A stretch of 64,000 nt of DNA from Collinsella aerofaciens (GCA_905213725.1 CAJMJM010000001.1:577-64576); one strand, 5' to 3'. Positions 25,800 to 31,090 are shown, counted from the first letter of the stretch. The notes: generated by a model not told the origin, from the sequence alone. Program-made: numbers and translations.

Positions 25800-25876
25800 T
25801 GCGGGGTGGAGCAGTCTGGTAGCTCGCCGGGCTCATAACCCGGAGGTCGTAGGTTCAAATCCTGCCCCCGCGACCA
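25800..25876 (+). tRNA. initiator tRNA-fMet (anticodon CAT)
   Basis: 77 nt, near-identical to E. coli tRNA-fMet (TGCGGGGTGGAGCAGTCTGGTAGCTCGCCGGGCTCATAACCCGGAGGTCGTAGGTTCAAATCCTGCCCCCGCGACCA); three G-C pairs closing the anticodon stem (GGG/CCC) typical of initiators; position 1:72 is U.G rather than a Watson-Crick pair; CCA encoded. Confidence 0.85.
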
Positions 25877-25964
25877 AGAACTTGCAGCTCGTCGGTCTAG
25901 CCGGCGAGCTTTTTTGTTATTCCGGGACTGTTTTCTCAGCCCAATTTCCAGCCTCTCAAACAAA

Positions 25965-26264
25965 ATCTCGATCTGTAACATCTAGACCCGATTTGGGCGG
26001 TTATCTGTTACAGATCGAGATATACCGGTGGGTTGGGTCCCATTTGTCTAAATCTGTAACACGAGGGACGGATTTTGCCGAGTTGTTGTTACAGATTGAG
26101 ATTTTCTAGCAGACGGGTTTGGATTGTCTCGATCTGTAACAGGTAGGGGCCAAAAGTGGGGCTAGGTGTTACAGATCTAGATTGTTGAGGATGGGTCGAG
26201 ATGAATATCTTGATCTGTAACAGTAAGATCCGGTTTTGCTGTGTAACTGTTACAGATCGAGACA
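25965..26264. repeat. array of four stacked hairpins (stem about 16 bp (A/T)TCTCGATCTGTAACA / TGTTACAGATCGAGA(T), loops 23-27 nt), block 1
   Basis: Units at 25965-26021, 26046-26104, 26126-26181, 26206-26264; block 2 at 30789-31090 is about 85-90% identical including unit-specific loops. Confidence 0.65.
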
Positions 26265-26338
26265 TTTGGACGGAGCAGGTCCGAATATTCGATTCGAAAC
26301 ATGTCAGCAAGGCAGATACTAGGGAACTCTACTAGGCC

Positions 26339-26379
26339 GCCTCCCATTTCTTGGACATTAGAAATGGGAGGCTTCTTTA
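26339..26379 (+). terminator. plus-strand rho-independent terminator downstream of tRNA-fMet and hairpin block 1
   Basis: GCCTCCCATTTCT-loop-AGAAATGGGAGGC followed by TTCTTTA on the + strand only. Confidence 0.45.
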
Positions 26380-26468
26380 TGGACGGGAGAGTCAGGCACG
26401 ACCGCTCTCGGCCTTCACCCACCTCAACTGCTCCTCAATTACATAGAGCTGGTCGAAAAGGGCGCAAG

Positions 26469-27917: not shown

Positions 27918-27948
27918 TATTATCTCCTTAGTGATATTGCCCGGGCGG

Positions 27949-29379
27949 CTAGCCCAGGTCGCCTCCGTTGGTGGCGATGGCCTGTTGATACCAGTAGAAG
28001 CTCTTCTTGCGCCTGCGCTCGAGCGTGCCGTTGCCCAGGTTGTCGCGGTCCACGTAGATGAAGCCGTAGCGCTTCTCCATCTCGCCGGAGCCCGCGCTCA
28101 CGAGGTCGATCGGCCCCCAGGTGGTGTAGCCGAGCATCTCGACGCCGTCCTGTTCGATGGCATCGCGCATGGCCTCGATGTGCTCGCGCAGGTAGGCGAT
28201 GCGGTAGTCGTCCTCGATCGTGCCGTCGGGAAGCACCTCGTCATAGGCGCCGAGGCCGTTCTCCACCACAAAGAGCGGCTTCTGGTAGCGGTCCCAGAGG
28301 TCGTTGATCGTGATGCGGAATCCCAGCGGGTCGATGACCCAGCCCCAGTCGCTCGTGCGCACGTAGGGGTTCTCCACGCCGGCGAAGGCGTTGCCCTCGG
28401 CGATGCCGCCCACGGAGTCGGGGTCGCCCGCGGTGCAGCGCGAGGAGTAGTAGCTAAACGAGATGAAGTCGACGGTGTTCTCCGCAAGGATGCGCTCGTC
28501 CTCGGCGGTCATGCCCACGTCGATGCCCTCGCGCTCGAGCATCTTGAGGGCGTAGCCGGGGTAGCGCCCGCGTGCCTGCACGTCCACGAAGAAGAGGTCC
28601 TCCTGGTTCTTGACCTGCGCCGCGCGGACGTCCTCGGGGCGGCAGGAGTAGGGGTAGTAGCTTCCCGCGGCGAGCATGCAGCCCACCTTGTTCTCCGGGT
28701 CGACCTCGTGGGCGATCTTGGTGGCCCAGGCGCTCGCCACGAGCTCGTTGTGCGCGGCGCGGTACTCGGCCTCGCGGGCATTCTCCCCGGGCTCGAGGAC
28801 GATGCCGGCACCCATGAAGGGACGGTGCAAGATCATGTTCATCTCGTTGAACGTGATCCACCAGCGAACGAGGCCGCGGTAGCGGTTGAAGAGTACCGTC
28901 ACGAGCCGCTTGTAGAGCTCGATGAGGGTGCGGTTTCGCCAGGCGCCGTACTTCTTGACGAGGTGGATGGGGCAGTCGAAGTGCGTGATGGTCACGAGGG
29001 GCTCGATCCCGTGCTCGCGGCAGCAGCGGAACACGTCCTCGTAGAAGGCGAGCCCGGCATCGTTGGGCTCCTCTTCGTCGCCATTGGGGAAGATGCGGCT
29101 CCAGGCGATGGAGAGGCGAAAGACCTTGAAGCCCATCTCCGCGAAGAGGGCTATGTCCTCGCGGTAGTGGTGGTAGAAGTCGATGCCCGTCTGGGCCGGG
29201 TAGTAGTACCCGGGCTCGAAGTCGAGCATGCGCCTCAGGCCACGACTCACGTCGTTGCGCTCCGGCCCGTGTGGGATGACGTCGACGTTGGCAAGGCCGC
29301 GGCCGCCCTCGTCATAACCTCCCTCGCATTGGTTGGCGGCGGTGGCTCCTCCCCAAAGGAACCCTTTTGGAAATGGCAT
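27949..29379 (-). CDS. bglA: 6-phospho-beta-glucosidase (GH1)
   Basis: 476 aa; GH1 motifs ([25 protein letters not shown]-like FVVENGLG, catalytic NEMN/ENG glutamates). Confidence 0.9.
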
Positions 29380-29497
29380 GGTGCCTCCTTCTCTCTGACG
29401 CCCCCACCTCTGCGGGGGACGCTTTATAACGTTCTTGCGACCTCACGCGCCGGGCCCGTGGCCCCCTGATGCGCGCGGGCCGCCTGTGAAGGGATGA

Positions 29498-30475
29498 CTA
29501 GCTGACGGCTTGTCCTGCGGCGCGACGTGCCTCCCGGCCTTCGACCAGGGAGGGAACCTGTGCCAGGCACACGCCGACGAGAATGATGGCGACGCCCAGC
29601 CACTCGACGACGCCGAGCGGCTCGCCGAGGACGATCATGGCGATGAGCAGGCCGGCGGGGAGTTCCGCGGCGGCCATGACGGTGGAGAGGCCTGCGGGCA
29701 GGTGCGGAGAGCCCATGCCGAAGAGCAGGACCGGGCAGAGCATGCCAAAGAAGCCGGCGATGACGGCAAAGGGCAGGATGCCCTGGGCGAGGACGCCCGA
29801 GACGACGTAGTCCGGGCACACCGTGAGTGACATGATCACGGAGCCCGCGCACACGATGACGCCGCGCTGCTCGGACGAGCAGGGGGCCTCGACCCTGCCG
29901 GAGAGGGTGACAAAGAGGGAGCAGGACACGGCCGCCCCCAGCGCGCAGAGCAGGGCCACGGGGTCGTACCCGGTGATGCCGGTCTTGTAGACGCCGCTGG
30001 CGAACACCGTCCCGAAGACGATGACCAGGGCGGAAACTACTTGGAGGGGCCTCGGCGGCCGGCGCGTCATGACGGTCTGCCACACGAGCCCCAGCCACGT
30101 GAACTGGAAGAGGAGCGTGAGCGCCACCGGGGCGGGCAGCACGCTCATGGCGTAGCAATAGAGGATTGAGGTGAGGCAGGTGAGGGCTCCCAGGCCCATG
30201 AGCTTAAGGGCGAGCTTCCAGCCCACGCGCTGCCAGCGGTGCCCGAGCGCGTGCCCTGCGAGCGTGGCGAGGGCGAAGAAGAGGCAGCCGAACCACGCCT
30301 GGCTCGCCACCACCTGTGCCGAGGTGAAGCCCGCGGCGTAGGCGAGCTTGTAGGTCGTGGCCATCGCGCCGTAGCAGGCGCCGCCCGCAAAGACCTGGAG
30401 CGCCGCCTTGACCTGTCCCGCGCCCGCGGCTCCCGCCTCGGCGGTCTGCTGCTTGATTGTGTTTGTTTCTGCCAT
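29498..30475 (-). CDS. multi-pass membrane transporter (DMT/EamA-like), third gene of the beta-glucoside cassette
   Basis: Start at MAETNTIKQQ (ATG complement 30473-30475); about 10 predicted TM segments; family assignment tentative. Confidence 0.45.
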   Translation of the reverse strand: MAETNTIKQQTAEAGAAGAGQVKAALQVFAGGACYGAMATTYKLAYAAGFTSAQVVASQAWFGCLFFALATLAGHALGHRWQRVGWKLALKLMGLGALTCLTSILYCYAMSVLPAPVALTLLFQFTWLGLVWQTVMTRRPPRPLQVVSALVIVFGTVFASGVYKTGITGYDPVALLCALGAAVSCSLFVTLSGRVEAPCSSEQRGVIVCAGSVIMSLTVCPDYVVSGVLAQGILPFAVIAGFFGMLCPVLLFGMGSPHLPAGLSTVMAAAELPAGLLIAMIVLGEPLGVVEWLGVAIILVGVCLAQVPSLVEGREARRAAGQAVS

Positions 30476-30788
30476 TAGGCTCCCTTCCGTCTGTTGTCTT
30501 GCAGACGCACATCTCGTGCGTCTGTTCCCTGCAGTCGGAAGGTGGGCTCGTGCGGTCCTCTGGCGGTGCATGTGGTACCTGCTGCCAAGACGAAAAAAGC
30601 CACGCAACCGACTGCTCGGTTGCGTGGCAAAAAGGTGGCTAGCGCCCAGAAAAGTCCACGCGTTTTTAGACGGAGACAAGGTACTACATCAGGTGAGATG
30701 CCGTCAAGAAAAGCCGAGGAAAAAAGTAGGTCTCTGCCCGCCGCACCTGTGGTGGTCGTTTCCCCGAACGGGGCGGTGCCGTTGGGGA

Positions 30789-31090
30789 CTGTCTCGATCT
30801 GTAACAGTTGGGGGCCAAAAGTGGGTCTAGATGTTACAGATTGAGATCTTTCCGCAGGCCGATTTCCGTTCATCTAAATCTGTAACACGAGGGACGGATT
30901 TTGCCGAGTAACTGTTACAGATTTAGATCTTTCGGCAGGCCAGATTGGTTTGTCTCGATCTGTAACAGGTGGAGGCCAAAAGTGGGTCTAGATGTTACAG
31001 ATCTAGATTGTTGGGGATGGGTCGAGAGGAATGTCTTGATCTGTAACAGTAAGACCCGGTTTTGCTGAGTAACTGTTACAGATCGAGACA
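30789..31090. repeat. array of four stacked hairpins, block 2 (direct repeat of block 1)
   Basis: Units at 30789-30848, 30870-30928, 30949-31007, 31031-31090 with the same TCTCGATCTGTAACA/TGTTACAGATCGAGA stems. Confidence 0.65.

Follow-up and report, generated by a model that had tools for sequence, protein, structure and literature searches.

The 64,000-nucleotide stretch of Collinsella aerofaciens DNA analyzed here (GCA_905213725.1, CAJMJM010000001.1:577-64576; hereafter the window) holds a small beta-glucoside utilization cassette 3' of an initiator tRNA gene, bracketed by two arrays of hairpin-forming repeat units. What are these arrays, and how did the cassette come to lie between them? 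An initial annotation, made from the sequence alone, had raised the possibilities of a tRNA trailer, the attachment sites of an integrated island, or operators for the cassette. The window arrays belong, with near certainty, to a repeat family that is dispersed through the genus Collinsella and apparently has not been described before. We consider it moderately probable that this family resembles the repetitive extragenic palindromic (REP) units and bacterial interspersed mosaic elements (BIMEs) of other bacteria, that its arms are read by a protein on duplex DNA, and that its arrays provide portable homology for the gain and loss of gene cassettes.

Array 1, the resident array of the locus, occupies positions 25964-26264, and array 2 occupies 30790-31090; neither has a strand. 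Each comprises four units, at 25964-26022, 26045-26103, 26125-26183 and 26206-26264 in array 1 and at 30790-30848, 30871-30929, 30951-31009 and 31032-31090 in array 2. The two arrays bracket a variable cassette as direct repeats, as initially annotated. The half-site 9-mer TCTGTAACA occurs 16 times in the 64-kb window, compared with 0.10 copies expected, and all copies form inverted pairs within the two blocks. A profile built from 92 non-redundant units finds exactly eight units in the window and no other match at E≤1. Window units have arms of 15-17 bp (TGTCTCgATCTGTAACA) and recur with a period of 80-81 bp. Folded as single-stranded DNA, each forms a hairpin with a free energy of -10.6 to -16.6 kcal/mol (z -4.1 to -7.2). 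The annotated hairpins therefore stand, but their loops, put at 23-27 nt, are exactly 25 nt in eight of eight units when the arms are taken as 15 nt. The reported block similarity of 85-90% is right on average, with 85% identity over 268 nt, but conceals a steep gradient of 62% for unit 1, which is different in kind, 84% for unit 2, 91% for unit 3 and 96% for unit 4. The loop of unit 1' (the first unit of array 2) looks inverted relative to that of unit 1, with 14 rather than 9 matches of 25, although we do not claim an inversion.

The distribution of the family was charted with an exact-pattern scan of one genome per species. At least 120 stretches matched, and the matches listed are the basis of the family counts; the data consist of 8-kb blocks around these matches, plus the window. 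Nearly all listed stretches are titled Collinsella. Together with the window they contain at least 378 units in about 145 arrays of one to eight units each. The geometry is rigid: 375 of 378 units have a 25-nt loop, the start-to-start distance between arms is 40 in 354 cases, and each right arm is followed by the next left arm at a distance of 39-41. Each array is a lattice of alternately oriented arms. Spacers between units have a fixed length of 25-26 nt and fall into 61 mostly locus-specific sequence clusters, and the orientation of unit loops is random, with neighbors pointing the same way in 119 cases and opposite ways in 105. When their flanks are clustered, the arrays fall into 59 flank clusters and at least 40 distinct genomic contexts. 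None of the arrays lies within an open reading frame (ORF); among the matches listed, 43 are intergenic between tandem genes, 35 between divergent genes and 28 between convergent genes. The nearest genes are ordinary ones, encoding oxidoreductases, DeoR regulators, GH1 enzymes, EF-type GTPases, glutamate synthase, phosphorylase and Nramp transporters. Genes found between array pairs elsewhere encode Nramp, a kinase with an FHA protein, a CAP-domain protein, a histidine phosphatase and a 364-aa orphan. A Pfam survey of 54 neighbor-gene clusters found no recurrent transposase or integrase beside arrays. A tRNA gene lies within about 115 nt of an array in three contexts among the matches listed, the window locus included. 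Rfam, searched at permissive thresholds with the window segment and four array loci, returned tRNA and no match to the repeat. Viral contigs gave only 12 matches, mostly host DNA beside prophage ends, and a literature search on Collinsella repeats and on the arm sequence found nothing relevant. One contig titled Acutalibacteraceae (L035, CAVCBD010000014.1; relatives are cited here by such L numbers) bears Collinsella-type arrays, the associated hairpin-T described below, and genes 91-94% identical to Collinsella loci, and is probably mis-binned.

The pattern of conservation within units indicates which part of the repeat is under selection. The consensus reads gTTTGTCTCgATCTGTAACA-nn-TAG-n6-AAA-n6-CTA-nn-TGTTACAGATcGAGACAaac, with arm positions conserved at 93-100% and the central AAA at 81-94%; the rest of the loop and the spacers are nearly random in sequence and constant in length. 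In 413 orthologous unit pairs from different species, differences amount to 3.8% in arms, 9.0% in loops (a figure biased downward by the pair-matching procedure) and 15% in spacers and flanks. Arms therefore evolve 2.4-4 times more slowly than loops or spacers in orthologous comparisons, which places the arms under purifying selection at each locus. Under a strict flank filter, no loop inversion was found between orthologs.

Selection on arms could act on a hairpin or on the two arms separately. Arm variation is limited to a few positions and is chiefly G/A, and the two sides change independently. Across the 92 non-redundant units, pairing in the 22-pair stem is 83.3%, compared with 84.4% in column shuffles (495 of 500 shuffles equal or exceed the observed value), and the stem covariation score lies below the shuffled mean. 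At the two most variable arm positions, G-T mismatches (22-26%) and A-C mismatches (21-23%) are equally frequent, so neither strand is favored. Because the arms change independently and pairing is not in excess, the palindrome is best described as two independently conserved half-sites rather than a stem kept by compensation. Recognition of the arms by a protein would account for this pattern, and we place its probability slightly above even.

How the cassette arrived can be read from relatives in which it is missing. The comparison of empty and occupied sites suggested by the initial annotation was informative: relatives have an empty site with one array. In seven species of the scan, the tRNA gene is followed by its own terminator, a single array and the oxidoreductase. 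That array has four units in L026, L118 and L047 and three in L063, L083, L102 and L095, where exactly one 81-nt period, arm to arm, is missing. A further relative found through an identical CoaX protein (L157), from a lineage 90-95% identical, has an empty site with a single unit. Strains 97-99.9% identical to the window share the array-cassette-array structure, and in one of them (L135) array 1 is reduced to two units, two having been lost. An empty site at strain level was sought through the exact oxidoreductase protein, which is not on record.

Array 1 matches the four-unit empty-site arrays (L026, L118 and L047) at 89-96% per unit, except for unit 1 against L047 (81%). In array 2, unit 1' is foreign and units 2' to 4' are increasingly similar to array 1. 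This gradient is the pattern expected if a molecule bearing the cassette and a homologous array had recombined with the resident one close to unit 4. Recombination between repeats, and not the tRNA gene, is probably the route by which the cassette arrived at the site and departs from it.

The tRNA gene itself was correctly annotated. The initiator tRNA-Met (CAT) lies on the plus strand at 25800-25876 (ARAGORN; Rfam tRNA, 63 bits) and shows, on direct reading of the sequence, the C1/A72 mismatch and GGG/CCC anticodon stem of an initiator. Its intrinsic terminator, at 25886-25910 on the plus strand, has an 11-pair stem followed by TTTTTGTT, stands between the tRNA and array 1, and is retained in every empty-site relative. 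On the other side, the conserved right flank is a plus-strand gene at 31231-33261 for an oxidoreductase of the old yellow enzyme (OYE)-like/pyridine-nucleotide-disulphide type (Pfam), which adjoins the single array in empty-site relatives. Foreign elements do occur at the tRNA in sister strains: those of L137, L139 and L142 encode NikA and a VirD4-type coupling protein, and those of L135 and L141 encode a tyrosine integrase. Homology to the window ends inside the 3' end of the tRNA, at 25832 for the former and 25828 for the latter, which means that the target of elements bearing integrase or conjugation genes is the tRNA, the arrays being left untouched by their junctions.

The 3' end of tRNA-fMet is, separately, an attachment site active for at least two different kinds of integrative element, the NikA/VirD4 type and the tyrosine integrase type. 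L156 and L161 are grouped with L135 and L141 among the sister strains that have their junction at 25828-25832.

The cassette comprises three minus-strand genes, as initially annotated and as Pfam confirms. A 482-aa phosphotransferase system (PTS) EIIB-EIIC permease (PTS_EIIB, PTS_EIIC) is encoded at 26469-27917, a GH1 glycoside hydrolase of the 6-phospho-beta-glucosidase type (Glyco_hydro_1, E=1e-127) at 27949-29379, and a 325-aa EamA-family transporter (EamA), as called in sister contigs L133 and L155, at 29498-30475. No integrase is found by Pfam among the cassette genes between the arrays, in line with the earlier statement. The non-coding left end of the cassette (26265-26468, plus strand) is absent from empty sites and partly common to L145. 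It contains a genuine plus-strand terminator at 26339-26372 with a 13-pair stem, which had been noted as following array 1. Upstream of the EamA gene, a minus-strand terminator with a 13-pair stem and TTTTTT lies at 30599-30628.

Outside this locus, the same genes are found without arrays. The EamA-GH1-EIIBC(A) trio forms part of a larger sugar cluster with a full-length EIIBCA of 638-640 aa in L143 and L151 (87-92% nucleotide identity), and lies beside an AAA ATPase in L152 (79%). The window EIIBC lacks the EIIA domain (PF00358) that homologs of 638-652 aa, 86-94% identical, carry; homology with the full-length EIIBCA loci ends at 26457-26460, and the segment 26265-26468 stands in place of the EIIA-coding part of ancestral-type operon copies. 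The segment common to the window and L151 runs from 30687 to 26460 and contains the terminator at 30599-30628, which the cassette has inherited from the ancestral sugar cluster.

The EIIA-less version recurs at a second locus, between RlmD and DJ-1/PfpI in L145-L150, at 95-98% identity and with an 856-nt internal deletion that fuses GH1 to EIIC. Two array units accompany the L145 cassette, both on the EamA side and none on the other. High identity to the window continues without interruption into the first arm of unit 1' (30792-30806) and ends in its loop. The loop of the distal L145 unit is identical to that of unit 1' at 23 of 25 positions, and this unit is followed by TTGTTGAGGATGGGTGAGGG, a spacer type that elsewhere, among the matches listed, is found only in arrays of the tRNA-fMet locus. 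Second-locus relatives have no arrays: RlmD and DJ-1 lie 110 nt apart in L153, and L154 has a different neighbor. The resemblance of the L145 units to those of the window locus, together with the lack of arrays in relatives of the second locus, shows that units move along with the cassette. The suggested comparison of GC content, overall and at third codon positions (GC3), showed no difference between cassette and flanks in either host. Equal composition would fit exchange within the genus, but in itself it says nothing about origin.

Cassettes and rearrangements are associated with arrays at other loci too. A 368-aa AAA ATPase lies between two two-unit arrays in L043 and L035, whereas in L048, L070 and L078 the site has a single array and lacks the ATPase. 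At this locus, the duplication exceeds the array by about 45 nt on the side of a terminator-like hairpin and by about 85 nt into the 3' end of the next gene, a pattern that favors crossover driven by homology over crossover specific to the arms. In L065, three genes, for a 532-aa protein, a GH1 fragment and a LacI regulator, occupy the interval between arrays, and the single array of L040 and L110 overlaps both L065 arrays by one unit. Arrays make up 5.9% of the DNA; of 172 synteny breaks without colinear continuation, 65 (38%) lie no more than 100 nt from one. Taken as a whole, crossover by homologous rather than site-specific recombination is in our view fairly probable.

Two further components accompany the arrays. 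The first, hairpin-T (AACCACCACAAAGGGGACAGGCACCTTTGTGGTGGTTTTG), combines a 12-bp stem with a T-run and a loop that is invariably 9 nt long, and has no Rfam match. There are 42 copies in 0.91 Mb, 35 of them within 60 nt of an array; the T-run points into the array in 30 of 37, and gaps to the array are quantized at 11-15, 23-25 or 34-35 nt. It looks like a terminator that would shield arrays from incoming transcription. Copies stand beside arrays in L014, L043, L075, L112 and others, and the window has one on the plus strand at 10290-10328. A putative degenerate right half (CACCTGTGGTGGT) can be recognized on the plus strand at 30744-30756 from the hairpin-T consensus and gap classes; its distance of about 35 nt from array 2 is a canonical hairpin-T gap. 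At around 10284, synteny of the window with L111, L082 and L053 breaks exactly. These relatives have a three-unit array beside hairpin-T, and the window has a different gene and no array, making this another variable border marked by the repeat system.

The second component is an orphan protein of 356-374 aa, confined to Collinsella, whose listed homologs are all at least 84% identical. In nine species its gene (L013:5004-6098; orthologs in L019, L041, L054, L056, L072, L076, L088 and L103) is hemmed in by arrays on either side, at a distance of 4-10 nt. Its C-terminus has a weak DUF559/Vsr-like match (E=0.024). The 364- and 374-aa versions gave no above-threshold Pfam match and none in NCBIfam, PHROG or PDB sequences, and an AlphaFold model, with a predicted local distance difference test (pLDDT) score of 39, is unusable. 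From its position, the orphan is a candidate partner of the repeats.

A prophage family (IMG/VR contigs L121, L124, L125, L127 and L129), compared with L039 at position 4673, has a probable integrase ORF at its end. Its junction lies 79 nt from the array, just past a hairpin-T copy, at ...AATCTTAATACTGCCACA, and there is no tRNA there. The array was considered as the attachment site of this prophage and rejected, as the junction falls 79 nt outside it.

The mechanism that we favor would combine these features as follows. A trans-acting protein would read two inverted arms of 17-20 bp, a fixed 25 bp apart, as half-sites on double-stranded DNA, with TAG/CTA and a central A-tract between the arms and units strung at 80-81 bp; such reading would hold the arms constant. 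Recombination between units would lengthen and shorten arrays in whole 81-bp steps. The long dispersed arrays would double as portable homology through which small cassettes are captured, lost and relocated. In the window, circular or linear DNA carrying EamA-GH1-EIIBC and its own array would have met the resident array beside tRNA-fMet, and a Campbell-type single crossover near unit 4 would have produced the array-cassette-array structure. The reverse crossover would restore the one-array empty site.

Several observations weigh against this proposal. Both cassette/array junctions in the window fall exactly at the outer edge of an arm, as a site-specific enzyme would also produce, and arms of 17 bp are, by themselves, short for recombination of the RecA type if the arrays are not orthologous. 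The L145 insertion has a one-sided array, and its relatives have no resident array, so that here, at least, homologous recombination of one array with another is too simple an account. Counted per intergenic region instead of per base, synteny breaks are enriched only about 2-fold. Finally, an apical 3-bp mini-stem flanking the central A-tract (loop positions 6-8 against 16-18) does covary: 48.6% of cells are paired, compared with 38.0±2.5% in shuffles, none of 500 reaching the observed value, and GC and CG types are both common. The helix was picked post hoc from an all-pairs scan, and the sequences are related. Weakly, this hints that an extruded hairpin or cruciform may matter as well.

The main alternative holds that the arrays are dedicated site-specific recombination sites, of the res sub-site or attC-hairpin kind, on which a recombinase or nuclease would act in trans to exchange cassettes throughout the genus; a direct-repeat pair of arrays would then be the substrate for excising a cassette circle with one array. 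Such a system would fit the unrelated cassettes enclosed by arrays in direct repeat, which are found at three loci that all have empty-site relatives, as well as the units that moved with a cassette to a new locus, the junctions at arm edges, and the strict unit geometry with dyad symmetry and an A/T center. The weak apical covariation and the nuclease-like orphan adjoining arrays would find a place in it too. We nonetheless judge it unlikely, given that the ATPase-locus duplication runs past the array into the neighboring gene, that core genes surround most arrays, where cassette polymorphism was not seen, that no recombinase recurs beside arrays, that the orphan model gives no structural help, and that loop orientation is random, unlike in attC or res. 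The parallels with these sites are real: attC is likewise an imperfect palindrome of about 60 bp with conserved outer parts, a variable center and cassettes between repeats, and res sites of the Tn3 family consist of dimer-binding inverted repeats in a row, direct-repeat copies of which permit circle excision. However, the arms read CTGTAAC/GTTACAG rather than RYYYAAC...GTTRRRY, units stand in tandem without ORFs instead of one attC accompanying each cassette, and no intI or attI is present in the window segment or among array neighbors; the units are also far larger than res sub-sites and have no linked resolvase. A bolder version makes arrays and capping hairpin-T the cis sites of an unrecognized Collinsella cassette-exchange system, integron-like but assembled from different parts, which we regard as improbable. 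It is equally doubtful that an enzyme of this system, for which the Vsr/DUF559-like orphan would be the candidate, synapses two arrays, excises a one-array circle and returns it to the chromosome, mostly at other arrays and rarely at a different kind of site.

The units could instead be selfish non-autonomous elements, akin to miniature inverted-repeat transposable elements (MITEs) or to REP doublets forming hairpins (REPINs), copied by a transposase encoded elsewhere, with the arms as terminal inverted repeats or as a hairpin recognition site. With its 17-bp inverted arms and TGT...ACA ends, a unit does resemble a 59-bp element; copies are many, strictly intergenic and limited to the genus, and the arms are conserved more than the spacer, as in REPINs. 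REPINs mobilized by REP-associated tyrosine transposases (RAYTs) share two conserved inverted repeats around a less conserved spacer and a gene wedged between clusters, here the 364-aa orphan. Yet no target-site duplication was found around arrays at any offset, no long element bounded by arms exists among them, orphan arms are rare, and a tandem lattice with fixed 25-26-nt spacers is unexpected of independent insertions. No transposase family recurs among the 54 neighbor clusters, and no Y1 (HUH) transposase or RAYT was found among neighbors in the 8-kb blocks, the orphan having only its weak DUF559 match. Loops are saturated between loci beside intact arms, and arrays are orthologous across species, so arm conservation reflects selection at each locus, including old orthologous loci, and not recent copying or replication. 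We consider a transposable origin of this kind quite unlikely. Action of the arrays as RNA, whether as a trailer of tRNA-fMet, as small RNAs, or as hairpins that stabilize or terminate mRNA, is very unlikely. Every unit forms a stable hairpin, a plus-strand terminator lies 3' of array 1, and the apical 3-bp stem covaries weakly, but the strong terminator at 25886-25910 precedes array 1 and most array contexts have no tRNA, which removes the basis for the trailer originally proposed. Variable positions of the 22-pair main stem show neither compensatory change nor excess pairing, G-T mismatches are about as common as A-C, arrays are as frequent in divergent promoter regions as at 3' ends, the terminator-like hairpin often faces inward, which suggests that arrays are shielded from transcription, and Rfam holds no match. 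Least credible is the pair of proposals made initially from the palindromic arms, the nearby tRNA and the direct repeats around the cassette, namely that the arrays are operators of a beta-glucoside-cassette regulator or the attL/attR of a tRNA-targeting integrase island. Identical units stand beside dozens of unrelated genes (Nramp, kinase/FHA, AAA ATPase, glutamate synthase and EF-type GTPases among them), the cassette occurs without arrays in other lineages, and the array is kept at empty sites. The repeats are arrays and not tRNA sequence, no integrase lies between them, and the elements that do carry integrase or conjugation genes join at the tRNA 3' end or, in the prophage family at another array-containing locus, outside the array. 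The arrays are not CRISPR, as already recognized: repeats alternate as inverted pairs, and loops share a consensus and are conserved across species at orthologous loci.

Returning to the reading of the arrays as protein-bound, recombinogenic repeats, its closest precedents are REP/BIME units of Enterobacteria and Pseudomonas and the neisserial intergenic mosaic elements (NIMEs). REP/BIME units are bound by gyrase, IHF and Pol I in E. coli. They too are genus-restricted, short, palindromic intergenic units present in hundreds of copies, in tandem clusters with fixed-length linkers, and they are known as sites of rearrangement and of insertion-sequence (IS) integration, which invites comparison with the Collinsella arrays. 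The many intergenic palindromic copies in one lineage agree with this comparison. The regular alternating orientation of REP units is not reproduced, as linkers are fixed and loop orientation is random. A Collinsella unit is a 59-bp pair of inverted arms and not a 35-40-nt imperfect palindrome, it lacks the GTAG-type 5' tetranucleotide and any sequence similarity to REP, and its host is an actinobacterium (Coriobacteriia). In Neisseria, NIMEs (dRS3) and minimal mobile elements offer a second parallel, in which intergenic arrays of inverted-repeat units border variable exchanged cassettes and phages integrate nearby. There, dRS3 itself is the phage attachment site, whereas Collinsella elements join at the tRNA or 79 nt outside the array, and the sequences and geometry of NIMEs are unlike those of the Collinsella units. 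By analogy, the family would appear to work like BIMEs or NIMEs, yet it departs from the defining features of each.

Elsewhere in the window, segments of about 400 nt at 19937-20351, 40056-40463 and 47126-47545 are 72-79% similar to one another and to pieces of L001, L068, L091, L101 and L112. A domain conserved among paralogous genes, which may encode ABC-type ATPases, is their probable identity.

Collinsella, a genus prevalent in the human gut, is divided into hundreds of species-level lineages, and carbohydrate genes account for most of the differences between them. A genus-wide repeat lattice that marks the places where small cassettes are acquired, lost and relocated, and that probably mediates these changes, would supply a concrete mechanism for this diversity. 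Invariant arms, fixed spacing, the lack of stem covariation and inward-facing terminators point to a predicted sequence-specific DNA-binding protein that would have hundreds of sites on the chromosome. Short-read assemblies break at the arrays and the boundaries of genome bins become blurred, and knowledge of them aids the interpretation of metagenomes.

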